Below are positions 1-14,311 of a stretch of 14,311 nt of DNA, piece by piece. Source of the DNA: an uncultured Thermococci archaeon (GTDB taxonomy: Archaea > Methanobacteriota_B > Thermococci > Thermococcales > Thermococcaceae); NCBI GenBank assembly GCA_964615185.1, contig CAZTOS010000061.1, forward strand, positions 1 through 14,311. The letters run 5' to 3'. The number at the start of each line of letters is the position of its first letter. Position 1 is the first letter of the stretch. The position numbers were made by a program, and so were the translations under genes. Below the pieces are notes generated by a model. That model saw only the letters and a list, made by a program, of their open reading frames with translations. It was not told the origin of the DNA and did not search any database.

Positions 1-499
1 TTCGCTTTACGTCATCGTAAACAATTTCAAGCCTCCCTTGCTTGCCCTTCAGGTGAATTCTCCCCTTGAACTGAATCCCCAGCCTGCCGAATTTTCCGAG
101 CCTCCTCAGCTCGATGACGTTCCCATCAATCCGGTACTGGTCATTTCTCAAAGGAATTGTGAAGAGTTTCTTTCCTTTGACGAATTTTGGCGGCTTGGGC
201 TTGAACCAATCAGGCAATTCCCCAGCCTTTTTCTTCTTGTTCAGGGTGAAGAAGCTCCGCCAAGCTTCTGCATTCTTTCTGGCTAATTGTTGGACTGTTG
301 AACCGCCAATCCAGTCTTTGAAGCAATAGTAGGCTTCTTTTTCCGTCCCGTTAAAGTCTATTTTGCCGAACTCCTTGAACTGCTTCAGCCTCTCGTAGTT
401 GATTTTGTTCCAGATTATGAGTGTGGCTTGAGCCAACTCGAAGAGAATTTTCTCCTGCTCTTTTGAAGGCTGGAGTTTGACGGTTACGCTTCTTTTCAC
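1..499 (-). CDS. tnpB: RNA-guided endonuclease TnpB (IS200/IS605 OrfB), N-terminal 166 codons; C-terminal RuvC/Zn-ribbon lies outside the window
   Basis: Hand translation from GTG at 499 is open to the edge: MKRSVTVKLQPSKEQEKILFELAQATLIIWNKINYERLKQFKEFGKIDFNGTEKEAYYCFKDWIGGSTVQQLARKNAEAWRSFFTLNKKKKAGELPDWFKPKPPKF...PLRNDQYRI... The 'KLQPSKEQE', 'WNKINYER', 'QQLARKNAEAWRSFF' and 'PKPPKF' segments are typical of archaeal OrfB proteins. SD GGTGA at 510-506. Confidence 0.92.
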   Translation of the reverse strand, partial: MKRSVTVKLQPSKEQEKILFELAQATLIIWNKINYERLKQFKEFGKIDFNGTEKEAYYCFKDWIGGSTVQQLARKNAEAWRSFFTLNKKKKAGELPDWFKPKPPKFVKGKKLFTIPLRNDQYRIDGNVIELRRLGKFGRLGIQFKGRIHLKGKQGRLEIVYDDVKR

Positions 500-657
500 T
501 CTTCTTCACCGGTTTCTTTGACTTTTTTAATCCAGAGTTTCATTGCTTCGCTTACTGCTATCCCAAGTGCACCCTTTCTAGCTCCGTACCTCCTTGCAAC
601 AGCCTTTCGAAATTCTCTCTCGATGTCGTCATCAACGACTATGGTTATCTTCCCCAT
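496..657 (-). CDS. Ribbon-helix-helix (CopG/Arc/MetJ-like) DNA-binding protein, 53 aa
   Basis: MGKITIVVDDDIEREFRKAVARRYGARKGALGIAVSEAMKLWIKKVKETGEEE: alternating N-terminal beta strand (KITIVV), helix, Gly-containing turn, second helix (AVSEAMKLW). SD-like GAGTGGTG just upstream; its TGA overlaps the tnpB GTG (GTGA). Confidence 0.85.
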   Translation of the reverse strand: MGKITIVVDDDIEREFRKAVARRYGARKGALGIAVSEAMKLWIKKVKETGEEE

Positions 658-690
658 ATACACCACTCAACATATGTATGGCATTAGAAG

Positions 691-705
691 TTTATAAGTT
701 TTTGG
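691..705 (-). promoter_or_regulatory. BRE/TATA promoter of the RHH-tnpB unit
   Basis: Minus strand CCAAAAA-CTTATAAA ending 33 nt upstream of the RHH ATG. Confidence 0.7.
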
Positions 706-741
706 CTTTCCTGTTCAAGAGCCAAATTTTTGAACACTGTA

Positions 742-764
742 CCCCGCCTAAAGGGCGAGGCTTG
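742..764 (-). repeat. IS left-end subterminal hairpin with guide tetranucleotide CAAG
   Basis: Minus strand CAAG(764-761)-CCTCGCCCTTTAGGCGGGG(760-742); pairs 745-748 with 754-757 and 742-743 with 759-760, one mismatch. Confidence 0.75.
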
Positions 765-779
765 GAAAAGAAAAAAGTC

Positions 780-793
780 AAAAAACAAAAAAG
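780..793 (-). terminator. Oligo-T terminator of the 40-aa gene
   Basis: Minus strand CTTTTTTGTTTTTT directly after the TAG at 796-794; archaeal oligo-T type. Confidence 0.6.
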
Positions 794-1202: not shown

Positions 1203-2003
1203 ATGAGAATTGCATTGAAGATAGCATATGATGGAAGTAAATTTTATGGATTTCAGCGACAGCCGGGGTTAAAAACTGTAGAAGGAGAGATAATTAGGGT
1301 TCTCCAGAAGCTTAATCTGATTGAATCTCCAGAGAAAGCCAATTTTAAAGGAGCCTCAAGGACAGATAAAGGGGTTAGTGCATTCGGAAATGTGGTTGCA
1401 TTCAACACTGAAAATTTAAAACTGGCCCAGCCAAGAATTTTAAATCACCATTTAAGAGATGTTTGGGTTTTAGGAATTGCTCAAGTTCCAGATGATTTCC
1501 ATCCAAGGTTTTGGGCAAAGAGCAAAATTTATCGGTATTACTTAGTTAACGAAGGGTTTGATGTAGAGGCAATGAGAGAATGTGCTAAGCTTTTCGTTGG
1601 CATCCAGGATTTTTCCGCCTTTGCTAAGCTTGAAAAGTTTAAAGATCCCATAAGAGAAGTTAGTAGACTTGAAATAATCCCAAGAGGAGAGGTTATTGTA
1701 ATCGAAATTGAAGGAAAGAGCTTTCTCTGGGAGATGGTCAGGAGGATTGTGAGTGCATTGAAGCTGTGTGGTCTTGGTGTTATTGGAGTTGAGGATATAA
1801 GGAGAATGCTGGAGGGAAAAATGGATAAGAAACTTCCCCCAGCGCCACCGGAGAATCTCTTTCTGTGGGAAATAAAATATGATAAAGTGAGTTTTCAAGT
1901 TGATGAGTACTCTATCAAAAAGATTAGGGAAGAGTTTTTTGAGAGGTTTAGTCATGCTTTGGTTAGAGCCAGCATATTTAGGGAGTGGCTTTCTTCTCTA
2001 TGA
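1203..2003 (+). CDS. truA: tRNA pseudouridine(38-40) synthase TruA
   Basis: N-terminal 'IAYDGSKFYGFQRQP', catalytic 'ASRTDKGVSA', 'SFLWEMVRRIV' and 'PAPPENLFL' motifs. Confidence 0.96.
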   Translation: MRIALKIAYDGSKFYGFQRQPGLKTVEGEIIRVLQKLNLIESPEKANFKGASRTDKGVSAFGNVVAFNTENLKLAQPRILNHHLRDVWVLGIAQVPDDFHPRFWAKSKIYRYYLVNEGFDVEAMRECAKLFVGIQDFSAFAKLEKFKDPIREVSRLEIIPRGEVIVIEIEGKSFLWEMVRRIVSALKLCGLGVIGVEDIRRMLEGKMDKKLPPAPPENLFLWEIKYDKVSFQVDEYSIKKIREEFFERFSHALVRASIFREWLSSL

Positions 2004-3365
2004 CTGCTTAACCTTGTTAGAGATGTTATTGTCATAAAACTTACCATAATAGTGCTTCAGGGCTTTTTCTCTTTCGATAAAGTGTGTAAACAGCAGAGGG
2101 TCATCATCCTGTACATCGACTATTATAGCCTCTCTTCCATCTTTTGGCCTTAAGGCTCTTCCAATGGTCTGGATTGTCATTATGTCACTCTTTCCTCCGC
2201 CAGCTAAAATTATAGCGGAAATCTCTGGTATGTCAACCCCCTCTTTAAGCAGGGTTGAAACTAAGACTTGAATTTCCCCGTTCTTGAACTTTTCAAAGAT
2301 TTCCCATCTGTTGGGGCTTTGAGAGCTTAGAAACTCAGCATTAACTCCTTTTTCTTTGAGCATTTTCACTAAAATTTCTCCATGATCAATTCTTCTGACA
2401 TCAATTAGGACTCTGTGTCCTTCTTTCGCAAGCTCAATGGCTTTTTCAACAATGGCTTTGTTCCTCTCCTCATTTTCCATAACCATCTCTTCGTAAAGCT
2501 CCTTATACCTCTCAGCTAAAGCTGGCATTTTTGATTCATATTTAATGATTTCAAATTTTGGCTTTGCCAAGAACCCTTCCTTAATTAACTCATCTGCCTT
2601 AACTTCGTAAATTATTGGTCCAACTGCTCCCTCAATCTTTATCTCTTCCCCTCTAATTCTTCTCCAAGGTGTTGCTGAGAGTCCAAAGCGGTAGACCTGG
2701 GGTAGGGACATACCAAGCTGGTAGAATTTTTCAGCAGCTGAAGTTCTATGACACTCATCAAAAATCACAGTAGCATAGGGAAGCTCAAGTTTATCAGCGC
2801 CTCTTGAAAGAAGTGTCTGAATCATGGCAACAGTTACGGGTTTTTCATTCCACTTGTTGTCCCCAACGATACCAGCTTCTACCCCAAGAACTTCTTCAAC
2901 TTTTTCCTTCCACTGATAGAGAAGTTCTTTAGTGTGAACAACTATAAGAGCAGAGAGATCGAGTTCATGAATTATTCTCAAGCCAACAACTGTTTTTCCA
3001 CTACCAACAGGTAACGCAAGAACACCCATCTTTGCTTTTATTGCTTTTTTTACAGCCTTTTGCTGGTATCTCCTTAGCTTGTATTTCTCATTCCATTCTG
3101 AATTCAGCTTAATACCCTCAACTTTACGTTCATCTATGATCCTCACACGATAACCCTTAGAATTCAAAAGCTTCTTAACTTTTGGAATTAACCCTACAGG
3201 GAATGATTTCTCATATGGATTATACAAACTCTCGGGTTTTTCCCATTTACCAAAATCTCTCTTGTAACTTAAAGCTTCATAAATCATGAAGTAGACCTTA
3301 GGCTCTGCCTTCTCGATAATAACCTTTGCACTTTTGTTTGGGATTCGTAACGTTACCATTGCCAT
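1998..3365 (-). CDS. xpb: SF2 DExH-box DNA helicase, XPB/Rad25-like
   Basis: Q-motif 'LRRYQQKAV', Walker A 'LPVGSGKT', 'DECH', 'GLSATP', 'EGVDIP', motif VI 'QTIGRALR'. Start is probably ATG 3365 or 3359 rather than the track's TTG 3371. The XPB subfamily call is less certain than the helicase call. Confidence 0.85.
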   Translation of the reverse strand: MAMVTLRIPNKSAKVIIEKAEPKVYFMIYEALSYKRDFGKWEKPESLYNPYEKSFPVGLIPKVKKLLNSKGYRVRIIDERKVEGIKLNSEWNEKYKLRRYQQKAVKKAIKAKMGVLALPVGSGKTVVGLRIIHELDLSALIVVHTKELLYQWKEKVEEVLGVEAGIVGDNKWNEKPVTVAMIQTLLSRGADKLELPYATVIFDECHRTSAAEKFYQLGMSLPQVYRFGLSATPWRRIRGEEIKIEGAVGPIIYEVKADELIKEGFLAKPKFEIIKYESKMPALAERYKELYEEMVMENEERNKAIVEKAIELAKEGHRVLIDVRRIDHGEILVKMLKEKGVNAEFLSSQSPNRWEIFEKFKNGEIQVLVSTLLKEGVDIPEISAIILAGGGKSDIMTIQTIGRALRPKDGREAIIVDVQDDDPLLFTHFIEREKALKHYYGKFYDNNISNKVKQS

Positions 3366-3397
3366 CGTCAATCAAAAGAAGATTTTGGAAAAAACTC

Positions 3398-3413
3398 TTT
3401 ATAGGCTTTTTGG
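3398..3413 (-). promoter_or_regulatory. BRE/TATA promoter of the helicase gene
   Basis: Minus strand CCAAAAAG-CCTATAAA about 33 nt upstream of ATG 3365. Confidence 0.55.
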
Positions 3414-3470
3414 CTCAAATTTGTGCAGAAAGGATAAAAGTAAGTTAACATAATCTGGAATGGTGATATT

Positions 3471-4739
3471 ATGCTGAGGGAAATCATCAAAAAATTTGGG
3501 GATGAGGTTGTCACTATTGAAAAACCTATTAGCAAAAACCTTGAGCTAACAAGCTATCTGCTTAAATATAAAACAAAGCCTGTTCTTTTCAAAAATATCA
3601 ATGGATGGGAAGTTGCTGGCAACATCTGGAGCACAAGGGAGAGAATAGCAAAATACTTGGGCATTAAAAAGGAGAAAATTCTGCACATTATAGAGTACGC
3701 AATGGATAATCTTCACGATTACAAGTTAATTGAGAAAGCGGAGTTCATGAATAACAAAACTGATGATTTCTCCCTTAAAGAACTCCCGATTCCAAAGTAC
3801 TACCCAAAGGATGGAGGGCAATACTTCACTTCTGCTATTGTGGTTGCAAAAGATGAAAATGGCTTCGTGAACATGTCTTTCCATAGAATGATGGTAATTG
3901 ATGATAATAGAGCGGCAATAAGAATTGTTCCTCGTCACTTGTATGCGATGTGGAAAGATAAAGCAGATAGGGGAGAAGAGCTTGATGTCAGAATAATTGT
4001 TGGTAATCCAATCTACGTTTTGCTTGCCGCTGCTACAAGCGTGGAATACGGCGAGAGTGAGCTTAACATAGCATCTGCAATAAAGGAGAAAACCTTGGGG
4101 TCACCCCTGGAGGTTGTCAACGTCAACGGTATTGAAGTTCCAGCGGAGAGTGAGTTCGTTTTTGAGGCGAAAATTCTGCCGGAGCTGACTGATGAGGGTC
4201 CTTTTGTTGACATAACCGGTACCTATGACCACGTTAGAAAGCAACCTGTCGTGGTATTTGAAAAGATGTACCACGTTGACAATCCAATTTTCCATGCCCT
4301 TTTGCCGGGAGGTTATGAGCACTACATGCTCATGGGTCTTCCAAAAGAACCTCAAATTTACAAGAGCGTGAGAAGGGTTGTTCCCAAAGTGCATGGGGTA
4401 AGGCTGACAGAAGGGGGCTGCATGTGGCTTCATGCCGTTGTTTCAATTACAAAGCAGCACGATGGGGATGGAAAGAACGCTATATTGGCAGCATTTGCAG
4501 GACATCCATCCTTAAAGCATGTTGTAGTTGTTGATGAGGATGTGAACATCTACGATGACAGGGAAGTTGAATGGGCAATAGCGACGAGGTTTCAAGCTGA
4601 TAGGGATTTGGTGATAGTCCCTAATGCAAGAGGAAGCTCTCTCGATCCTTCAGCCAAGAAAAGCCTGACAGCAAAGTGGGGAATTGATGCAACGAAGCCT
4701 TTGGATAGAAAGAAGGAGTTTGAGAGGGCGAAGCTTTGA
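3471..4739 (+). CDS. UbiD-family prFMN-dependent decarboxylase, probably anhydromevalonate phosphate decarboxylase of the archaeal mevalonate pathway
   Basis: 'DGGQYFTS', 'NMSFHRM', 'EGPFVDITG', '[25 protein letters not shown]', 'SSLDPS', 'KWGIDAT'; SD GGTGAT three bases before the ATG. The family call is secure; the substrate is inferred. Confidence 0.9.
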
Positions 4740-4785
4740 GGTGCAAGATAAATGATTTATACTTTCCAGACGATTTATAGTTGTG

Positions 4786-5064
4786 ATGAAAATGGATGAG
4801 GTGGTTATTTCGCGCAGGGAAATTTTAATGTATGAGAGGCTGAAGGTGATATCCGAAATCGCCCCGATACGTGAGAGAATTAAAGCATTTGAGAGGAAGT
4901 ACGGCATGACGCTTGAAGAATTTGAGGAGCATCTTAAGAAAGGTGAGGAGTGTTTTGAGGAGTGGGATGATTACATCGAATGGAAGGCTTACGTAGAAAA
5001 GCTGAGAGAGCTTGAAAAGCGCTTAAGGGAGATTGAACATGCTCAGAGAGTTAGAGTTGCTTGA
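4786..5064 (+). CDS. Small acidic helical protein, putative antitoxin partner of the DUF6516 gene
   Basis: 'FERKYGMTLEEFEE...WDDYIEWKAY' pattern that I associate with genes upstream of DUF6516 proteins; overlaps the next gene. Start could be 4783, 4786 or 4792. Confidence 0.7.
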   Translation: MKMDEVVISRREILMYERLKVISEIAPIRERIKAFERKYGMTLEEFEEHLKKGEECFEEWDDYIEWKAYVEKLRELEKRLREIEHAQRVRVA

Positions 5065-5386
5065 AAAGAGTCCCATTGTGAAATCGTTTGAAATCCTTGA
5101 CTACAAGGACGGCTGTGATTTCTACTTCCTGAAGATAAAAGCTCTGCTGGTTGATGGCAGTATTCTGTACGTTAGGGAGTTTGTTTCCAAAGAGGAATAC
5201 GTTTATTCATTCCAGTGGCAGAGAAATGGCGAGCTGATTGTTCGCTGGGATAATGCCCCTCATCACAGGAACATTGAAACGTTTCCCCATCATAAACACG
5301 TGGGTGATGAAATCCTGCCCTCCAATGAGACAGCTCTTGAGGATGTTCTTCTCTTTATAGAGTCTAGGGTAATTAAGAAGGGGTAA
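5039..5386 (+). CDS. DUF6516-family protein (TumE-like putative toxin)
   Basis: 'YSFQWQ...IVRWDNAPHH...TFPHHKH' signature; ATG 5039 follows GGGAGA and overlaps the upstream gene by 26 nt. Confidence 0.8.
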   Translation: MLRELELLEKSPIVKSFEILDYKDGCDFYFLKIKALLVDGSILYVREFVSKEEYVYSFQWQRNGELIVRWDNAPHHRNIETFPHHKHVGDEILPSNETALEDVLLFIESRVIKKG

Positions 5387-5487
5387 GGTGAGGGGATCAT
5401 CTAGAGCCAGAACTCGAAGAATTTAGGCAGTTCCTTGCAGAAATCTCAGGCAAGAAGATAGAGGCAAAGAAACACCTCGAAGTAAAC

Positions 5488-5718
5488 TTGGAAGGCGTTA
5501 AGCTTGAGATTCTCTCAGTTCTTCAGGCTTTGGAGTTTGCGGATTATTCTGAAGAAGCCAAGAGGAAGGTCATTCAAAAGCTGAGCTCAAGGATTGAGGA
5601 GCTTTCAAGGGAAGAACCGTCACGGGAAGTTCTCCTTAAAATAGGGTTCTACGCATATGCTGTTGAGCTCATCAAGAGCGGAAGATACGAGATGGTGGCA
5701 AAGATGAAAAAGCTCTGA
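5488..5718 (+). CDS. Hypothetical helical protein; reading frame is open back to 5392 and the true N-terminus is probably near 5396
   Basis: Protein-like composition and host-like codon usage; in-frame upstream extension HLEPELEEFRQFLAEISGKKIEAKKHLEVN; SD AAGGTGAG at 5385-5392. Confidence 0.65.
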   Translation: MEGVKLEILSVLQALEFADYSEEAKRKVIQKLSSRIEELSREEPSREVLLKIGFYAYAVELIKSGRYEMVAKMKKL

Positions 5719-5729
5719 ATATAAATGAA

Positions 5730-5761
5730 AGGGTACCAAAAACTTAAGAAATTGGTACCCT
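5730..5761. repeat. Perfect 10-bp inverted repeat with 12-nt spacer
   Basis: AGGGTACCAA-aaacttaagaaa-TTGGTACCCT. Confidence 0.85.
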
Positions 5762-5825
5762 AAAGTATACAGAATGCTAAGTTTCGATTCCTCTTGGAGT
5801 TTTAAAAAATATAAAGCTCTACGGC

Positions 5826-5857
5826 ATGAGCGGAAGAATAAAGCTCATTCCGCTCAT
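5826..5857. repeat. Perfect 10-bp inverted repeat with 12-nt spacer, 8 nt beyond the proC stop
   Basis: ATGAGCGGAA-gaataaagctca-TTCCGCTCAT. Confidence 0.85.
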
Positions 5858-5865
5858 AAAGTGGC

Positions 5866-6648
5866 TTATCTATTGATCTCAAGCGATAAAATCTTTGACT
5901 TCTTGGTTGCGGCATCCACGGTTTTCATTATCGCTGTTCTTACCCTGCTGTCTTCAAGCTCAAAAATACCATCTATCGTTGTTCCTCCTGGGGTTATCAC
6001 CATATCCCTAATTTGGGCTGGGTGTAAATTTGTCTCCAAGAGGAGTTTTGCTGTGCCCAGAAGAGTCTGAGCAGCTGCGAGTAGGGCAACATCCCTTGGT
6101 AATCCAACTTTTAAGCCCCCGTATATCAGCGATTCTAAAAAGACGGAGGCATAAGCCGGTCCAGAACCGCTCAGACCTGTTATTGCGTCCATGTATTCTT
6201 CTTCAATTTTAATGCACTTCCCAAAGGTTTCAAAAATTTCTTCAACGAGCTTTATCTCTTCATCGCTTAGGTCATTTGTGGCATAAGCTGTGAAGGATTC
6301 CCTTACGAGAATCGCTATATTTGGCATGGCCCTAACAAACTTTGCATTCGCTAATTCTTTGAGGACTTTCAGGGGAATACCGGCAGCAAATGAAATAACA
6401 ATTTTTCCTTTAACGGCTTCTCTAATCTCTTCAAGAACTTTTCTAACTTTGTTTGGTTTCACAGTTAGTATTATTACATCAGCACTTTCTGCTGCGGTTT
6501 TGTTGTCTCTCAGCACTTTGACACCATACTCTTCGAGCCATCTAACCTTCTCAATTCTTCTCCTTGTGGCTATAACTTCATATTTCTCTGAGAGCGCTTT
6601 GGCAACGGCACTTCCAACTGTTCCAGCCCCGATTACAGCTATCTTCAT
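5866..6648 (-). CDS. proC: Pyrroline-5-carboxylate reductase
   Basis: Rossmann 'IAVIGAGTVG', 'VRAMPN', 'TGLSGSGPAY', 'VITPGGTTIDG'. Confidence 0.95.
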   Translation of the reverse strand: MKIAVIGAGTVGSAVAKALSEKYEVIATRRRIEKVRWLEEYGVKVLRDNKTAAESADVIILTVKPNKVRKVLEEIREAVKGKIVISFAAGIPLKVLKELANAKFVRAMPNIAILVRESFTAYATNDLSDEEIKLVEEIFETFGKCIKIEEEYMDAITGLSGSGPAYASVFLESLIYGGLKVGLPRDVALLAAAQTLLGTAKLLLETNLHPAQIRDMVITPGGTTIDGIFELEDSRVRTAIMKTVDAATKKSKILSLEINR

Positions 6649-7631
6649 TTTATCACCTCTAACTTATAAGCTAACTCTGCATTTAGAATTGAACCCCCAG
6701 CGGCTCCTCTAATGAGATTGTGTCCCAAAGTGACGTATTTGAACTTTCTCTCTCCGATTTTTTCTAACCTCCCAACTGTAACTGTCATTCCATTACCGAG
6801 TTCTCTGTGAAGTTTTGGCTGGGGGATTTCCCTATAGACAATTGGCTTTGCATAGGATGGTAGCTTAAGCTCTTTCAATGGGTCAAAGGATTCAAAAGCT
6901 TTTTTAAGTTCCTCAACACTGATATCTTCACTAAGTTCAACAAAGACTGCCTCTGTGTGTCCGTGAGATACTGGAACCCTCGTTGTAATGGCTGATATCT
7001 CAAAGTCAAAGCCAAGAATTTTCTTTGATTCGTTCTCGATTTTCCACTCCTCTTTTTCAATGTAAGGAATTACGTTGTCAAAAATCTGTAGAGCTGATAA
7101 ACCTCTAAATCCCGCTCCACTTATTGCCTGCATAGTTGCAACGTTGACATTTTTGAGTCCGAATTCTGAAAGAACTTTCAGCGAAAGCACCAGAATGGCT
7201 GTGGAACAGTTTGGATTTGTGACTATAAACCCCTCCCACCCTCTTTGCTCTTGCTGAAATTCGATAAGCTTTAACTGGTCTGCGTTAACTTCTGGGACTA
7301 AAATGGGTACATTGTCTTCATATCTATGGGATGAAGCGTTGCTGAACACGGGGATTTTCTCGGCAAGTTTTTCCTCCACCTTACCGGCTATTGAAGAGGG
7401 CAAAGCTGAGAAGACTAAGTCTACATCCAGATTTTTTAAGAAATCTTCCAAGCTCTCTATCTCTATGTCCCCAATATCATCACTGACCCATTCTGCAATT
7501 TCTCTGTACTTCTTTCCTTTAGATCTTTCCGAAGCAACTAACCTTTCAATTTTAAACCAGGGGTGATTTTCTAAGAGCCTTACAAACGTCTGCCCAACTA
7601 AACCTGTAGCACCTAAAATTGCAACCTCCAT
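6645..7631 (-). CDS. asd: Aspartate-semialdehyde dehydrogenase (archaeal type)
   Basis: 'ILGATGLVGQ', 'VPEVN', catalytic 'NPNCST', 'QAISGAG', 'RVPVSHGH', 'HNLIRGAAG'. Confidence 0.95.
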   Translation of the reverse strand: MEVAILGATGLVGQTFVRLLENHPWFKIERLVASERSKGKKYREIAEWVSDDIGDIEIESLEDFLKNLDVDLVFSALPSSIAGKVEEKLAEKIPVFSNASSHRYEDNVPILVPEVNADQLKLIEFQQEQRGWEGFIVTNPNCSTAILVLSLKVLSEFGLKNVNVATMQAISGAGFRGLSALQIFDNVIPYIEKEEWKIENESKKILGFDFEISAITTRVPVSHGHTEAVFVELSEDISVEELKKAFESFDPLKELKLPSYAKPIVYREIPQPKLHRELGNGMTVTVGRLEKIGERKFKYVTLGHNLIRGAAGGSILNAELAYKLEVIK

Positions 7632-8806
7632 CAGAGAACCTCCCTAAACGCTTCCAAACTTGGCTCTATCGGTTCTGGAAGCTTAAAGTTCTCAATAATT
7701 ATATTTGGGTCTTTCAGCCCATGCCCCGTTGTAATTAAAACATAACTCTCATCTGGTTCAATCAGACTAAGTTCTTTCAGCTTAATTAGACCTGCCAAAG
7801 AAGAAGCTGATGCTGGCTCGACAAAAATTCCCTCTTTTGATGCGAGCAGTTTTTGAGCCTTCAGAATCTCCTCATCACGCACGCTTTCAAGCAATCCGCC
7901 TGATTCTTCAACAGCTTTCCATGCTTTTTTCCAATTTGCTGGATTTCCAATCCTTATGGCTGTTGCTACGGTTTCGGGCTTCTCCTCAGGTTTGAACTCT
8001 CTTCTCTCCTTCCAAGCTTTAGCCAGTGGTGATGCCCCCTCAGCCTGAATACCAATCATCCTCGGTAGTTTATCTATAAATCCGGCCTCATAAAGCTCCT
8101 TAAAGCCCTTCCAGATTGCCGAAATGTTACCGGCGTTTCCTACGGGCAGAATAACATTATCGGGAACAAAGCCAAGTTGATCGAATACCTCAAAAGCTAT
8201 CGTCTTCTGTCCCTCAAGGCGGAAGGGGTTTATTGAGTTGAGCATGTAAACTCCTAATTCCCTGCTTGCCTCCACCACAACCCTCAAAGCGTCGTCAAAG
8301 TTTCCTCTAATTGGAACAACCTTTGCACCATAAACTATTGCTTGGGCAAGCTTTCCTAAGGCTATCTTTCCGCTTGGCACTAAAACATAGCTCCTTATCC
8401 CGGCTTTTGCTGAATATGCAGCTAAAGACGCTGAAGTATTCCCCGTTGAGGCGCATATAACCTTGTCCATGCCCAGCTCCAAAGCTTTGCTCACTCCAAC
8501 CGTCATTCCTCTGTCCTTGAAAGAACCCGTTGGATTTGCACCTTCGTTCTTGACGTAAAGCTCTCTCATCTCAAGCTCTTTCTGAAGGTTTTCCAGACGA
8601 TACAGGGGTGTACCTCCTTCATTGAGAGAAACTCTTTTTTCAACTGGAATAAAGCTCTTGTACTTCCAGAGTGTTATGTTTTTTCCATCAAAAACATTTT
8701 CAACTTTATCCAAATCGATGACTACCTCCAATAAGCCGCCGCAGTCGCACCTATATCTAACTTCATCTTCTGGGTATTCCCTACCACACTCTATACATCT
8801 AAGCAT
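7631..8806 (-). CDS. thrC: Threonine synthase
   Basis: N-terminal Zn-ribbon (CIECG...CDCGG), PLP lysine motif 'NPTGSFKDRG', 'ASTGNTSASLAAY', 'PVGNAGN', 'TGHGLKDP'. Confidence 0.96.
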   Translation of the reverse strand: MLRCIECGREYPEDEVRYRCDCGGLLEVVIDLDKVENVFDGKNITLWKYKSFIPVEKRVSLNEGGTPLYRLENLQKELEMRELYVKNEGANPTGSFKDRGMTVGVSKALELGMDKVICASTGNTSASLAAYSAKAGIRSYVLVPSGKIALGKLAQAIVYGAKVVPIRGNFDDALRVVVEASRELGVYMLNSINPFRLEGQKTIAFEVFDQLGFVPDNVILPVGNAGNISAIWKGFKELYEAGFIDKLPRMIGIQAEGASPLAKAWKERREFKPEEKPETVATAIRIGNPANWKKAWKAVEESGGLLESVRDEEILKAQKLLASKEGIFVEPASASSLAGLIKLKELSLIEPDESYVLITTGHGLKDPNIIIENFKLPEPIEPSLEAFREVL

Positions 8807-9678
8807 TTTGCTCCTCCTCCAACTTTGGTTATAAAATATTCTGCTCTAATTCCCTCATTCTCAAATGCTTCTACCATAACTTTCCCAATATTCCTCAAAT
8901 TCTCCCCCAAAGCAAACATTGCTGGACCCGAACCAGATAAAGAAACACCATAGGCGCCACTTTCCAGTGCAGCTTTTCTAATATTGTCAAACCATGGCAT
9001 GAGCGGTTTTCTGTAAGGAATAGCCAAGTAGTCATCCAGAAGTTTTCCGACTTTTTCTATGTCTCCTTCTTTCAAAGCCGATATTAAGGCACTTGCAAGG
9101 GCTAAATTTCTAACGGCATCGCTTAGAGGGATATATCTTGGTAGGATTTCCCTTGCTCTTTTTGTGCTAACTTCAACTTCTGGGAGAACAATGACAAGCT
9201 TAAAGCTCACATCAAGCTTAAACACTTCAAGAGGTGAAAGGGATTTTAGTATTGTAAATCCACCAAAGAGGGATGGAACAATGTTATCTCCATGAGCACT
9301 TCCAGATGCAGCCTTTTCTCCCTCAAGAGCAGCCTTTATTATGAGTTCCCTATTTTCAACTCCAAGGAGCTTTGCTAATGCTAATGCCCCACCTATGGCC
9401 GATGCTCCAGAGCTTCCGAGTCCGCTTTTAGGTCTTATTCCCTTTCTAATCTTCATCTTAAAGCCGGTCTCTGCTTTAAGCATCTTCAAGAGTGCAAGGG
9501 CAGATATCGAAGCAACGTTCTTTTCTGGATCTTCTGGCACGTTAAATCCTTCAACTTTTACTTCAATTTCATCGCTTTCTTTGATTTTGATTATATCTCT
9601 TGGTTCATCAAGGCACAAGCCAAACACGTCAAACCCTGGCCCAAAGTTCGCTATCGTTGCTGGTGCTGAGACTTTCAT
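8791..9678 (-). CDS. thrB: Homoserine kinase (GHMP family)
   Basis: 'PATIANFGPGFDVFG', 'PKSGLGSSGAS', 'HGDNIVP', 'LSGSGP'. Confidence 0.96.
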   Translation of the reverse strand: MKVSAPATIANFGPGFDVFGLCLDEPRDIIKIKESDEIEVKVEGFNVPEDPEKNVASISALALLKMLKAETGFKMKIRKGIRPKSGLGSSGASAIGGALALAKLLGVENRELIIKAALEGEKAASGSAHGDNIVPSLFGGFTILKSLSPLEVFKLDVSFKLVIVLPEVEVSTKRAREILPRYIPLSDAVRNLALASALISALKEGDIEKVGKLLDDYLAIPYRKPLMPWFDNIRKAALESGAYGVSLSGSGPAMFALGENLRNIGKVMVEAFENEGIRAEYFITKVGGGAKCLDV

Positions 9679-10726
9679 TTAAAACCACCTCGTGGATTTC
9701 GTTTAAAGCGGCTTCAAGATTATCTCTTTCAACGAGAAAGCATACAAAGTCCCTGCTCTGTTCGACAATGGGATAGTCTGCATCAACACAAGAAGTTCCA
9801 ACAACTCCTATCTTTGCAGTGTCTCCAAAAGTCTTGTAGGTTATTATTGGCATTTTAAAGCTGATATCCGAAATCAATGTTCCTAATCTCCATTCACTTG
9901 TCTTTCCAAGGATTAGTGGGATTCTGTCTTTGATTGGCTCAATTGTTCTCTCATGTAATGCCTTCATTCCAAGTCTCGAAGCTATTAAAGCTTCTTCATA
10001 GGATATAAATGGAATAATTCTGGCATTTTTGACTATTCTTGGGTCAGCGGTATAAATTCCTTTAACATCACTCATTATTAAGACAGCCCTGGCATTCAGG
10101 AGATATCCCAAAACTGAGGCGGTGTAATCACTTCCCCCTCTTCCCAATGTAGTTCTGAGGCCGTTAAAATTCCCGAGAAATCCTGTAACAACTGGAATCT
10201 TATCTTTTTTCAGTAGTCGCTCTATTGTCCAAATCTTGTCTTTTGTTTTCTTTAAGTCAACTTCGGCGTTACCAAAGTTTCCATCCGTTTCTATTAGATA
10301 AAACGCATCAAGGGGAGCACTTTTGATCCCTTCATCTTCTAAGGCTTTTGAAAAAAGTTTTACTGACAGTCTTTCCCCAAATGATAGGACATGATCTACA
10401 TATGCCTTTCTGTTTGGGAATCTTTTCTCATTTTCCAGGATAAATCTAAGTTCTTTGATCTCATTTTCAATACTTAGCTTGATTCCAAGCTTCTCAATTG
10501 CTCTTAAATGTATTTCTTCAAGCTCTTCAAGAACCTCTGGGCTTTTACTTTCTGCTAACTTTAGTAGTAAATCTGTAACACCTTTTAATGCGGATAGAAC
10601 AATTACAACTTCATTGCCTTCATAAAACTTTTGAACGAGTCTTAACGCTTCACTAAAAGAGTCTCTAACCGAACTTCCTCCAAATTTAATAACTACCCTT
10701 GACTTAGCGGAGAGTTTGTAAACCAC
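9629..10726 (-). CDS. lysC: Aspartokinase with a short C-terminal regulatory region
   Basis: 'KFGGSSV', 'SFGERLS', 'TTLGRGGSDYTA', 'SDVKGIYTADPR'; 365 aa; first gene of the thr operon. Confidence 0.92.
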   Translation of the reverse strand: MVYKLSAKSRVVIKFGGSSVRDSFSEALRLVQKFYEGNEVVIVLSALKGVTDLLLKLAESKSPEVLEELEEIHLRAIEKLGIKLSIENEIKELRFILENEKRFPNRKAYVDHVLSFGERLSVKLFSKALEDEGIKSAPLDAFYLIETDGNFGNAEVDLKKTKDKIWTIERLLKKDKIPVVTGFLGNFNGLRTTLGRGGSDYTASVLGYLLNARAVLIMSDVKGIYTADPRIVKNARIIPFISYEEALIASRLGMKALHERTIEPIKDRIPLILGKTSEWRLGTLISDISFKMPIITYKTFGDTAKIGVVGTSCVDADYPIVEQSRDFVCFLVERDNLEAALNEIHEVVLNESLSTSNDSELWARV

Positions 10727-10764
10727 CGATAGTGCATCACCTTATCCGTAGAGTTTTTAATATG

Positions 10765-10780
10765 CTTATAAGTTTTTTCG
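10765..10780 (-). promoter_or_regulatory. BRE/TATA promoter of the aspartokinase-thrB-thrC-asd-proC operon
   Basis: Minus strand CGAAAAAA-CTTATAAG, followed about 22 nt later by SD AAGGTGAT (10743-10736). Confidence 0.7.
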
Positions 10781-10909
10781 AAAATTTTTTGTCTTTTTGT
10801 CGAAATTTGCAAAATTCTCCTGAAAATGATTGTCAAAATGACATATTTTGGTGCAACAATCTTTAAAATAGTTCAACTAAATGCGGTTTAAAATACCATA
10901 ATGATAAGC

Positions 10910-10940
10910 TGGCCGGCTTTTCCTGACCAAAAATTTAAAT
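10910..10940 (+). promoter_or_regulatory. aro operon promoter (BRE/TATA) with an adjacent candidate Tar-binding box
   Basis: TGGCCG-N8-TGACCA (10910-10929) running into AAAA-TTTAAAT (10930-10940). Confidence 0.6.
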
Positions 10941-11057
10941 AGTAATAAAGAGTCTTCAAAGCTTGGTGATGGTGATGCCCCGCCAATATCTGTAACCCCA
11001 ATTCCAAGGATTGAAAAAGAAGAATTAGCTGTTTTTAGAAAGCTCTTTTTAAGGGCT

Positions 11058-11294
11058 TTGAATGAAAATCAGCTTCTGATTTTAAGGAGCATAAATGGGA
11101 AACATAGGTCCTTGAATGCTCTTTTGGAGGAAATAAGCAGGGAAACCAAGAAGCCAATCTCGACATTAAAGCTCAATGCCAAGATTCTGAAGGAGCTCGG
11201 CTTAATTGACTACGGCGAAAGGAACAATCCAAAGCCCGTTGAATTGACAAAACATGGACGACTCGTTCTAAAAATTCTTGAGGTGGTAGAATGA
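11058..11294 (+). CDS. Winged-HTH (ArsR-like) regulator, homolog of the Thermococcales aromatic amino acid regulator Tar; N-terminus probably extends to about 10975-10980
   Basis: 'SLNALLEEIS...PISTLKLNAKILKELGLIDY...PVELTKHGRLVL' wHTH pattern; first gene of the aro cluster, the position TK0271 occupies in T. kodakarensis (from recall). Confidence 0.8.
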   Translation: MNENQLLILRSINGKHRSLNALLEEISRETKKPISTLKLNAKILKELGLIDYGERNNPKPVELTKHGRLVLKILEVVE

Positions 11295-11956
11295 GCGAAA
11301 GCTTGGTTCACTCGGTCTTAAGTGACAGGCTAAAAGAAATGGTCTCGGAAGTGAACAACTTCCACCTCAACTCCTCTATAACATGCCTTGAGATTTTAAA
11401 GGCAGTGGTAGCAAAGAAAAGAGAAAACGACATAATAATCTTAAGCAAAGGTCATTCAGCACCGGCATTTTATGTAATCCTTTCAGAGCTTGGGCTTTTA
11501 AGTGAAGAGGAACTGAAAAACTTTGCTAACTTAGATGGACTGCCAAGTCACGTTATCAGGGGTTTGCCATTCATCGAGGTCTCCAGCGGTTCATTGGGGC
11601 AGGGGTTATCGGTTGCCAACGGAATAGCATTAGCCTCAAAGCTTGAAGGAGAAGAAAAGAACGTTTACGTGATTTTAGGCGATGGGGAATTAGATGAGGG
11701 TCAAATTTGGGAGGCAGCAATGACTTCTTCGCATTACAAGCTTGACAATGTCATAGCCATTGTTGATAGGAACTTCAAGCAATTAACAGGGAAAACAGAG
11801 GAGATCATGTCAAAAGAGCCCTTAGGGGAGAAATGGAAATCCTTTGGCTGGGAAGTGTTTGAGGTTGAAAACAAAGCCGAGAAAATCCTCGAGTTGCTCT
11901 TTAATCTTGACAAAGTAAAGGGAAAGCCGAAGGTGATAATAGCAAAATGGGAGTGA
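11291..11956 (+). CDS. Transketolase, N-terminal (TPP-binding) subunit
   Basis: 'LSKGHSAP', 'SSGSLGQGLS', TPP motif 'GDGELDEGQIWEA...DRN'. Confidence 0.93.
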   Translation: MSESLVHSVLSDRLKEMVSEVNNFHLNSSITCLEILKAVVAKKRENDIIILSKGHSAPAFYVILSELGLLSEEELKNFANLDGLPSHVIRGLPFIEVSSGSLGQGLSVANGIALASKLEGEEKNVYVILGDGELDEGQIWEAAMTSSHYKLDNVIAIVDRNFKQLTGKTEEIMSKEPLGEKWKSFGWEVFEVENKAEKILELLFNLDKVKGKPKVIIAKWE

Positions 11957-11962
11957 AAGGCT

Positions 11963-12892
11963 ATGGGTAAAATCATCGAAAGTTTTAGGGAAGCCTTTGG
12001 AAGAGCTTTAGTTGAGATAGGAAAGGAGAACGAAAACGTTGTAGTTCTCGATGCAGATGTAAAGGGTTCGACGAAAACGATTTACTTTGAAAAAGCTTTC
12101 CCCGATAGATTCTTCCAAGTCGGCATAAGCGAGCAGGATTTAATTTCAACAGCCGCAGGCTTTGCGATAGCCGGCAAAATTCCAGTAGCTTCAGCTTTTG
12201 CGGCTTTTATGATGAGGGCTTGGGAGCAGATAAGAAATACAGTAGCGAGGGATAACCTAAATGTCAAAATTGTTACAACCCATTCGGGGTTTTCTGATTT
12301 CATGGATGGCTCATCGCATCAATGCTTAGAGGATATAGCTTTGATGAGGGTTTTGCCAAATATGAAAGTCCTTATGCCAGCAGATGCTTATGCAACCAAA
12401 GTTCTCCTTAAGCAGATGGTTGAAAGTGAAGGACCCTTTTATATGCGTTTGGGAAGAGATTACACGATAAAGGTTTACGATGAAGAAGAGCTCAAAATTG
12501 GGAAGGCAGAAATCTTGAGGGAAGGAGAGGATGTTTTTTTGATTGCCTGTGGATTCATGGTTCCAGTGGCTTTAGAAGTCGCTGAAGAGCTTAAAGACTT
12601 GAGCGTTGGAGTAGCGGATTTTCACACGATAAAGCCCCTTGATGAAGATACCTTGCTCAAAATAGCTAAAAAAGCCAACTTAATAGTCACCTTAGAAGAG
12701 CACAGCATTTTTGGAGGACTTGGAGGAGCTGTAGCAGAAGTTTTGAGCGAAAATATGCCAAAGAGGGTCATTAGAATTGGAACAAGTGAGTTTGGCAAAA
12801 GCTCGAGAGACTACTTAGCGTTATTGGATCTCTACGGCTTAAGCACTGATAAAATTGCAAAGAGAATAGCTAAGGCAGTTGAGAGACTGTAA
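11963..12892 (+). CDS. Transketolase, C-terminal subunit
   Basis: 'FPDRFFQVGISEQ', 'RAWEQIR', 'DGSSHQ', 'TIKPLD', 'EEHSIFGGLG'. Confidence 0.93.
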   Translation: MGKIIESFREAFGRALVEIGKENENVVVLDADVKGSTKTIYFEKAFPDRFFQVGISEQDLISTAAGFAIAGKIPVASAFAAFMMRAWEQIRNTVARDNLNVKIVTTHSGFSDFMDGSSHQCLEDIALMRVLPNMKVLMPADAYATKVLLKQMVESEGPFYMRLGRDYTIKVYDEEELKIGKAEILREGEDVFLIACGFMVPVALEVAEELKDLSVGVADFHTIKPLDEDTLLKIAKKANLIVTLEEHSIFGGLGGAVAEVLSENMPKRVIRIGTSEFGKSSRDYLALLDLYGLSTDKIAKRIAKAVERL

Positions 12893-12911
12893 AATGCTGG
12901 GAGGTGATTTA

Positions 12912-13697
12912 ATGTTTAAATTTAGCAAAAAATACAAAGCTAAGACCGTTGTCAAGGTTAATGGGGTCAAATTTGGAGGAGGATTTACCATAATTGCTGG
13001 GCCGTGTTCCGTCGAATCGGAAGAGCAGATAATGAAAACTGCAGAATTTTTAAGCGAGCTTGGGGTTAAAGTCCTGAGAGGAGGGGTGTTTAAGCCCAGA
13101 ACTTCTCCCTACTCCTTCCAAGGGCATGGGGAGGAGGCTTTGAAGTGGCTCAAAAAAGCTGGAGAAGAGTTTGGCTTAGTTACGGTCAGCGAAGTTATGG
13201 ATACAAGGAAAGTTGAACTTGTGTCTAAATACGTTGATATTCTGCAAATCGGGACAAGAAATGCTCAAAACTTTGACCTTCTGAAAGAGGTCGGCAGAAT
13301 AGATAAGCCGGTCATTTTAAAGAGAGGCTTTGCCAATACGATTCAAGAGTGGCTCTATTCGGCGGAGTATATCTTAGCTGAGGGAAATGAAAACATTATT
13401 CTCTGCGAGAGGGGCATTAGAACGTTTGAAACATCAACGCGCTTTACCCTCGACATCTCAGCGGTTCCAGTCGTTAAAGAGCTGTCTCATCTCCCAATAA
13501 TAGTTGACCCCTCCCACGCCGCTGGAAAGAGGAGCTTAGTTAAACCCTTGGCTAAAGCAACGTTTGCCGTCGGAGCGGATGGAATCATGGTTGAAGTTCA
13601 TCCAGAGCCCGAAAAAGCCATGTCGGATTCAAAACAGCAACTGAACTTCGATGAGTTCAAAGAACTCTTGGAGGACTTGAGAAAATGGGGATTATAA
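12912..13697 (+). CDS. aroF: 3-deoxy-7-phosphoheptulonate (DAHP) synthase, type I-beta, catalytic barrel only
   Basis: 'IAGPCSVES', '[11 protein letters not shown]', 'LKRG', 'CERGIRTFE', 'VDPSH'. Start corrected to ATG 12912 (SD GGAGGTGAT at 12900-12908). Confidence 0.95.
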
Positions 13698-14311
13698 TCG
13701 AGAAAGGCAGCATTAAAAAGCTAAAAAGCATTGTTGATGAGCTTTCCCCTTACAAAACTGTCGTAATAACTAACACAACTCTCGAAAAACTTTGGTTAGA
13801 TAAGATTTTGGAGCAAATAAGCGCTATTCCAATCGTCATTCCCGATGGAGAGAAGTTCAAAAGCCTTGAGACGGCTCAGCAGATATGGAAAGAGCTAATT
13901 GAGATCGGCTTCACAAGAAAATCTTTGATAATTGGGCTTGGTGGTGGGGTTATAACAGATTTAGCTGCTTTTGTTGCCTCCACTTTTATGAGGGGAACCT
14001 ATTTGGGCTTAATTCCAACGACGCTTTTAGCTCAAGTTGATGCTGCTATAGGGGGGAAGACAGGAGTAAATTTTGAAGGTAAGAATATCATTGGAACTTT
14101 TTACCCGTCCAATTTTGTTCTAATTGATCCAGAAACCCTAAAAACGCTTCCCGAGGTTGAAATATTGAACGGCTTTGGTGAGGTCGTTAAGTATGGGATT
14201 CTTGATTCGAGGGTTTATGAGAAGCTCAAATCTTTCAGGGAAATCAATGAAGAGCTAATTAGGGAATGCGTAAATGTAAAGCTCAGAATCGTTAAAGAGG
14301 ACTTAAGAGAG
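13685..14311 (+). CDS. aroB: 3-dehydroquinate synthase, partial (runs off the right edge)
   Basis: Hand translation from ATG 13685: [13 protein letters not shown]...IPDGEKFKSLE...GLGGGVITDLAAFVASTFMRG...IPTTLLAQVDAAIGGKTGVN; overlaps the DAHP synthase stop. Confidence 0.95.
   Translation, partial: MGIIIEKGSIKKLKSIVDELSPYKTVVITNTTLEKLWLDKILEQISAIPIVIPDGEKFKSLETAQQIWKELIEIGFTRKSLIIGLGGGVITDLAAFVASTFMRGTYLGLIPTTLLAQVDAAIGGKTGVNFEGKNIIGTFYPSNFVLIDPETLKTLPEVEILNGFGEVVKYGILDSRVYEKLKSFREINEELIRECVNVKLRIVKEDLRE

Follow-up and report, generated by a model that had tools for sequence, protein, structure and literature searches.

Positions 781 to 742 on the minus strand of the window, the whole 14,311-nt stretch of DNA analysed here, form the left end of an IS200/IS605 element of the IS1341 type, which is non-autonomous and carries a ribbon-helix-helix (RHH) gene and tnpB. 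The element boundary is 777/776, and the insertion target is the tetranucleotide TGAC. The best explanation of the data joins this left end with a pairing between the DNA guide CAAG and TGAC and, as we infer, with a TnpB that has TGAC as its TAM; the probability of this reading as a whole is put at roughly 0.8. A published rule thereby fixes the boundary firmly and gives a likely TAM for an uncharacterised TnpB family of hyperthermophiles.

The window is one contig (C61) of a Thermococcaceae genome in 138 contigs (G000). Homologous loci on named contigs belong to Thermococcus or Thermococcaceae, and the sequencing runs containing the stretch are mostly hydrothermal-vent metagenomes. The features of the left end are collected in Table 1. 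The linker has the modal length, found in 59 of 106 left ends, and the hairpin, which lacks one G compared with most copies, folds with a 7-bp centroid stem (z -2.6, segment 738–764 folded). The stop of the RHH reading frame overlaps the tnpB start. The element has a total length of 1596 nt, provided that the 36-nt overlap between contigs C61 and C83 is true. Outside the element, from 1203 to 14311, host genes include truA (Pfam-checked) and, named from their translations, what we take to be a superfamily-2 helicase, a UbiD-like decarboxylase, proC, and threonine-pathway and aromatic-pathway genes. An overlapping pair of small reading frames at 4783–5386 on the plus strand resembles the TumA/TumE antitoxin-toxin pair, with both members under the cut-off.

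Table 1. Features of the element end in the window
Feature	Position	Strand	Evidence
TGAC, left cleavage site and insertion target in host DNA; predicted TAM	777..780	-	sequence, copies, empty sites
T781, optional fifth base 5' of TGAC	781	-	
IS200/IS605-family element, part in the window; runs on into contig C83 to position 7386	1..776	-	
Pyrimidine linker TTTTTTCTTTTC, 12 nt	765..776	-	
Left guide G_L, CAAG	761..764	-	
Subterminal hairpin IP_L, CCTCGCC-CTTTA-GGCGGGG	742..760	-	fold and other copies
TA directly 3' of the hairpin; position of the IS608 triplet-forming A+42/T+43	740..741	-	
RHH reading frame, 56 codons, start GTG 666 or ATG 657, in the tnpA position	496..666	-	Pfam RHH_6 E 0.0019, below cut-off
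tnpB residues 1-166, WED/REC, predicted TAM-reading part; leaves the contig at its end	2..499	-	
tnpB codons of E53; G66/S67; Q70/Q71; R133	343-341; 304-299; 292-287; 103-101	-	

Element boundary and insertion target

In genomes of the same genus, the left flank can be matched up to about position 775 and then continues into DNA that here sits on contig C83. This contig shares 36 identical bases with the end of the window and holds the remaining tnpB, with D-E-D RuvC and zinc-finger motifs in frame, as well as a right end closing in TCAG; if both contigs are contiguous, tnpB has its full length of 430 aa. The preliminary description had placed the boundary at 777/776 and proposed an alignment with the empty locus of relatives. 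In six of six same-genus genomes, left and right flank aligned without a gap across the joint, and there was no target duplication. The closest empty site (G002) reads GGAC/TTCTCAG, against TGAC/element...TCAG/TTCTCAG here. Since the empty sites of the six relatives today read GGAC, AGGC, AGGC, AGAT, GGAT and AGGT and none reads TGAC, a point against the main reading, TGAC is particular to this lineage. Other copies in four sequencing runs, which come from four studies, part from the window sequence at 780–782, so that TGAC is common to the copies and nothing beyond it; both the boundary and the expected start of similarity between copies at 776 were thus borne out. A contig joining the empty site within the window was not found in four sequencing runs.

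It had also been expected that each copy would be preceded by TGAC. Among the CAAG-type left ends of this genome, this holds for 12 of 14 (by eye; two share one flank) and fails for two, which have TGAT and TGGC. As TGAC occurs in this genome with a background of 0.0026 per position, the match between CAAG and TGAC is not due to chance. The three AAAG-type left ends of the genome have the flanks TTAC, ATAC and TTTC (by eye).

As in IS200/IS605 elements, insertion took place 3' of a 4-nt target without duplication or terminal inverted repeats, and both ends have subterminal hairpins, of which the right one lies on C83 and is shortened. Between the ends there are an RHH reading frame and tnpB and no tnpA, as in IS1341-type elements. 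The right end of the window copy measures 41 nt from a conserved landmark, while the mode is 65 nt (75 of 181 copies) and only 5 of 181 are shorter; about 24 nt are lacking. The right guide is AAAC, a mismatch to the rule, and the match to HgcC reaches 27.6 bits, compared with 41.7 bits for a related locus (L043), both under the gathering score of 50. With intact RuvC motifs and a shortened right end, the window copy is probably decaying within a family that is itself active. Because of this damage it may be inactive or immobile, and its omega-RNA may be weak.

Guide rule and target classes across the family

In IS608, the pairing of guide base 4 with target base 4 was reportedly described by Barabas in 2008. 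In this element, the guide AAAG pairs with TTAC via A+16:T-3 and A+17:T-4 (PMC5934647), in agreement with the pairing from which the preliminary description had started. The two bases after the hairpin form triplets, and position 3 of the target is not free, as a bond connects T-4 and A-2 within the cleavage site (PMC3201880); the preliminary description had left this position free, which is not how IS608 behaves.

Loci of tnpB were gathered from 97 family genomes (66 of the 97 with a match, matches listed only) and from pattern scans. Three loci that were duplicate, misanchored or flankless were left out beforehand. Of the 218 loci scored, 43 were removed because no left end or flank could be recognised and 7 because their flank was a repeat, leaving 168 unique left ends. 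An A at target position 3 followed by C or T at position 4 served as anchor for the boundary, so that position 3 lies outside the covariation counts. About five ends of the set are misplaced (L135, oC16, L278, L205 and perhaps L134); they were kept and count against the rule.

Guide base 1 and target base 2 varied together, with C/G in 62 ends, A/T in 78, C/T in 8, A/G in 3 and other combinations in 17. For guide base 4 and target base 4, the counts were G/C 140, A/T 10, G/T 9, A/C 2 and other 7 (both for the 168 ends among the matches listed). Fisher p values on these counts overstate the association, as the copies are kin. The rule for guide 1 and target 2 was broken by 11 of 151 ends among the matches listed. 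Three of the rule-breakers (L132, L156 and L157) lie at different sites of one genome (G083) and combine CAAG with a TTAC or ACAC flank. After the hairpin, AT followed in 78 of 84 ends with an A guide and TA in 47 of 70 ends with a C guide (among the matches listed). At the right end, GAAC went with TCAG in 101 of 134 cases, and TCAT accompanied GAAA in 5 of 6, although the search pattern itself contained TCAG. The covariation at two positions supports the IS608 guide rule for this family, with the pairs CAAG/TGAC, AAAG/TTAC, CAAA/TGAT and AAAA/TTAT, and the left end in the window obeys it as had been proposed.

In some copies (L132, L156 and L157 of G083, L163, L046, L126, L165, L101 and L148), guide, target and TnpB clade disagree. 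These might be natural tolerance tests or products of recombination between copies.

TnpB residues and the predicted TAM

The protein of the related locus L043, which is 92% identical to that of the window, matches the TnpB model NF040570 with 179 bits (cut-off 100). In a FastTree phylogeny, the TnpB proteins split into two clades with a support of 100. Clade A, to which the window protein belongs, carries G66 in 74 of 75, S67 in 75 of 75 and R133 in 75 of 75 proteins, and clade B carries S66 in 60 of 60, A67 in 59 of 60 and G133 in 60 of 60 (among the matches listed). Target base 2 was G in 62 and T in 4 clade-A ends, G in 4 and T in 86 clade-B ends, with 12 other cases (168 ends among the matches listed). 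The last target base went with residue 53: E53 was found with C in 142 ends and with T in 6, Q53 with C in 2 and with T in 12, and other combinations in 6 (168 ends among the matches listed). Q53 is a minority in both clades, mostly together with T71, and was linked to T in 6 and C in 2 ends of clade A and to T in 6 and C in none of clade B (among the matches listed). The window protein has G66/S67/E53 and falls in the TGAC class.

Two copies with E53 and T71 (L294 and L296) have the targets TGAC and TCAC, and two copies with Q53 and Q71 (L226 and L279) have the target GTAT (by eye). All four single-change copies side with residue 53, so residue 53 and not residue 71 follows the last target base. 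Residue 71 was accordingly rejected as determinant of position -1, as T71 together with E53 goes with C, and so was residue 50, as L50 occurs with TTAC. In L065, L101 and, by eye, L252, Q53 is present despite a target ending in C. On a tree built without the motif columns, changes to Q53 were counted five times in clade A and four times in clade B, of which the supported branches force one each. Five independent pairs lie on supported branches, with 4.6 on average changing in the same direction and none in the opposite one, which is not significant (p 0.0625). Among the first 166 positions, 38 distinguish the two clades, so G66/S67 are not singled out by the comparison. At the level of sequence, target base 2 changes with the clade (G66/S67 versus S66/A67), and the last base changes with E53/Q53 in both clades.

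For the contacts themselves, protein models were compared with solved structures. The model of the L043 protein has a pLDDT of about 80–93 over residues 1–170 and the WED/REC/RuvC/zinc-finger fold, with Foldseek E values of 1.7e-15 against ISDra2 TnpB and 3.4e-19 against AsCas12f1. Searches of solved structures with a single sequence or a 55-row profile left the N-terminal part without an alignment; a profile of 85 rows aligned it, and ISDra2 numbering was transferred via the ISDra2-like designed chain 9yyg, of equal length and matched range. By this profile, G66/S67 lie on K76/F77 of ISDra2, Q70 on Q80 and R118/N119 on T123/N124, while Q70 and R74 lie on S92 and K96 of AsCas12f. E53 falls on H72 of AsCas12f in a non-significant stretch of the alignment and, by the same 85-row profile, on M55 of the ISDra2-like chain, one off S56. 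In ISDra2, K76 reads G at -3, F77 and T123 read T at -4, Q80 reads A at -2, N124 reads T at -5, and Y52 and S56 read T at -1 (PMC10097598). H72 of AsCas12f contacts the -1 base (10.1101/2023.07.03.547593). At position 53, Glu would accept a bond from cytosine and Gln would donate one to thymine. A glycine at position 66 cannot read G in the manner of ISDra2 K76, which counts against the residue code. A Deinococcus TnpB with the predicted motif TTGAC carries Asp56, and editing at TTGAT is impaired by S56D; supplied with its own RNA, the Asp56 protein showed no editing at TTGAC (both PMC12415229).

From these data we infer which residue reads which base. In the resulting code, the family would consist of four classes, TGAC, TGAT, TTAC and TTAT; a change of one guide base would retarget a shared transposase, and TnpB would follow with E53/Q53 for C/T at -1, with a separate origin in each clade, and with residues 66/67 (or R133) for G/T at -3. 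This code is given even odds.

It is improbable, at a level well below that of the code, that boundary and TnpA target are right but the TnpB TAM is relaxed, and that residues and targets are merely linked; residue 53 sits 150–700 nt from the guide and would be inherited with it. The few independent origins (p 0.0625), the persistence of copies with mismatched guide, target and TnpB, the relaxed TAMs of Sulfolobus TnpB and the mosaic, poorly supported branches of the trees would all fit such a linkage. However, both clades show E-to-Q together with C-to-T, and the stretch from 53 to 71 otherwise remains clade-specific, so E-to-Q was not one transferred block, and residue 53 aligns at or next to the -1-reading site of two solved structures (AsCas12f H72, and M55 beside S56 in the ISDra2-like chain).

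In ISDra2, ISGst and Sulfolobus elements, the TAM equals the target in the left flank (PMC8612924; 10.1101/2023.03.14.532601). TGAC is the best TAM prediction for the family class, and a likely one. The preliminary description had offered TGAC or TTGAC as target and TAM; TGAC is retained as insertion target, and the longer form amounts to a bias. At -5, T stands in 29 of the 60 flanks with TGAC (p 0.0007 against a background of 0.28) and in 33 of the 79 with TTAC (p 0.0006 against 0.25), in both cases among the matches listed. That the true motif is the pentanucleotide TTGAC, like TTGAT of ISDra2, would agree with this enrichment and with the alignment of N119 to N124 of ISDra2, the reader of T at -5, but is very unlikely, as A, G or C stands at -5 in 31 of 60 TGAC flanks among the matches listed, which also excludes TTGAC as required insertion target, and as -6 is likewise rich in T (25 of 60), suggesting a T-tract context. 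Plainly, T at -5 is a weak bias, and insertion needs four bases only. The least credible alternative, with hardly any weight left, is a chance match of CAAG and TGAC or a boundary two bases further in, for which the TT at the start of both left end and right flank would leave room for a shift of up to 2 nt at this single locus, but TGAC lies 5' of 12 of 14 ends in this genome, any base may follow TCAG at the right end (A in 63, T in 50, C in 47 and G in 32 of 192 copies) and the first linker base varies among A, T, C and G, so that multi-copy alignments rule out the inward shift.

Transposase supply, known systems and related elements

In the 750–900 nt examined upstream of tnpB, tnpA was found for none of 92 genes in clade A and for 17 of 122 in clade B, among the matches listed. 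The genome has one gene for a Y1 transposase (PF01797), within a related AAAG-guide element on C16. Because of these two findings, the TGAC-class elements would borrow TnpA in trans; tnpA was seen only in elements of the TTAC class. The RHH gene probably encodes an Arc-like repressor. Small RHH genes of Arc repressors are found inside IS605 elements (10.64898/2026.09.24.754181); unlike these, the gene in the window stands in the tnpA position, is co-oriented with tnpB and overlaps it.

TnpA is known to excise and insert single strands by guide pairing, and a joint swap of guide and target keeps activity; TnpB cuts the empty site beside a TAM equal to the target (both PMC8612924 and 10.1101/2023.03.14.532601). 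For the element in the window, the left hairpin of the single-stranded form would be bound by a Y1 transposase supplied in trans, and CAAG would pair with TGAC (C:G, A:T, G:C), so that the element would leave and enter 3' of TGAC, at 777/776, with no duplication. For the right end the rule would be the same, with GAAC pairing with TCAG. TnpB with the omega-RNA of the right end would then cut the empty site, where TGAC adjoins the right flank, and spare the filled site, where the guide match follows TCAG; for this, the TAM of TnpB must equal TGAC. TnpB would track the DNA guide, with clade A (G66/S67, R133) for TGA-, clade B (S66/A67, G133) for TTA-, E53 for a final C and Q53 for a final T.

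Among the closest known systems is IS608 of Helicobacter pylori, where a four-base guide 5' of the left hairpin pairs with a four-base target. The sister class with AAAG, TTAC and AT after the hairpin equals the IS608 set letter for letter; the window copy differs from it by CAAG/TGAC/TA, a 12-nt linker, a right end with GAAC/TCAG and the lack of its own tnpA. In ISGst1-5 and PATEs of Geobacillus stearothermophilus, targets are likewise specific to clades and covary with the DNA guides, several families share one TnpA, the TAM equals the target, and protein-free mini elements occur (Meers et al., 10.1101/2023.03.14.532601). Unlike the divergent TnpB and IscB families of ISGst, the classes described here occur within one family of 60–90% identity, so candidate residues become readable. 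ISDra2 TnpB (TTGAT) and AsCas12f1 (TTR) share the fold, and their TAM/PAM-reading positions align with residues 53, 66, 67, 70 and 119; the differences are an identity of 14–19%, Gly/Ser at the K76/F77 positions and the four-base target. SisTnpB1 and SisTnpB7 of Sulfolobus islandicus (TTTAA) are thermophilic archaeal TnpBs for which the TAM was predicted from left-end alignments and then confirmed; they differ in family, target and host, are active to 85 °C and tolerate many TAM variants. A TGAC TAM is reportedly also known for ISAba30 TnpB from Xiang et al. 2024.

Published work already covers the guide rule, the covariation of guide and target, the use of left flanks to predict TAMs, and TnpBs of thermophilic archaea; a natural residue code with four classes in a hyperthermophile family was not found in print. 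A TAM of a Thermococcales TnpB or a residue-53 code was not found in the literature, and subscription papers or bioRxiv supplements may hold them. According to Nety et al., TnpA and TnpB share a motif, which limits TAM diversity; three family motifs occur in none of the 59 orthologs tested there, and a close homolog is present in the tree file (PMC10278001, as far as accessible). The accessible parts of PMC13639567, PMC12558985 and PMC10691335 added nothing on this Thermococcaceae TnpB family.

TnpA locates its target through base pairing of DNA, and TnpB reads the identical motif with amino acids. This matching has been noted as a constraint and was not resolved (10.1101/2023.03.14.532601; PMC10278001, in the parts available). 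Four natural classes, separated by a single guide base and by one to two residues, make it testable. The classes would add heat-stable compact nucleases reading TGAC, TTAC, TGAT and TTAT and, if the code is true, a natural single-residue record of a protein-read TAM keeping step with a base-pair-read target in hosts living near 80–95 °C.

Several further elements were seen. In eight loci (L053, L074, L080, L089, L105, L142, L161 and L162), linker, guide and hairpin are deleted exactly after TGAC or TTAC and an immobilised tnpB remains; AC microhomology or a miscut by the transposase might be the cause. Three tnpB loci with Q53/T71 (L107, L108 and L292) have no left-end hairpin, share one locus in several genomes and are perhaps domesticated. 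Two loci of the window's genome (C1:1568 and C27:12392) have an identical left flank and a frameshifted tnpB, due to duplication or an assembly repeat.

A one-hairpin element of 46 nt (C32:14408-14453, L304; also C6:35766 and C41:673) consists of TTAC, linker, AAAG, hairpin and a right-end tail to TCAG. Near-identical units occur in G003, G004 and G005, and three relatives have about 630–640 other bases at the C32 site. Protein-free elements of about 400 nt were found at C1:15587, C4:5628, C31:4874 and C45:204 (L307–L309), with similar units in many family genomes. In each, a CAAG left end is followed by about 190 nt rich in hairpins and lacking an Rfam match, and then by the omega-RNA region and a right end; these elements are PATE-like and possibly donors of omega-RNA. 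A second, unrelated TnpB family is present in the same genome (C31:6469-6666 and C69:8232-8426; L002 and L003).
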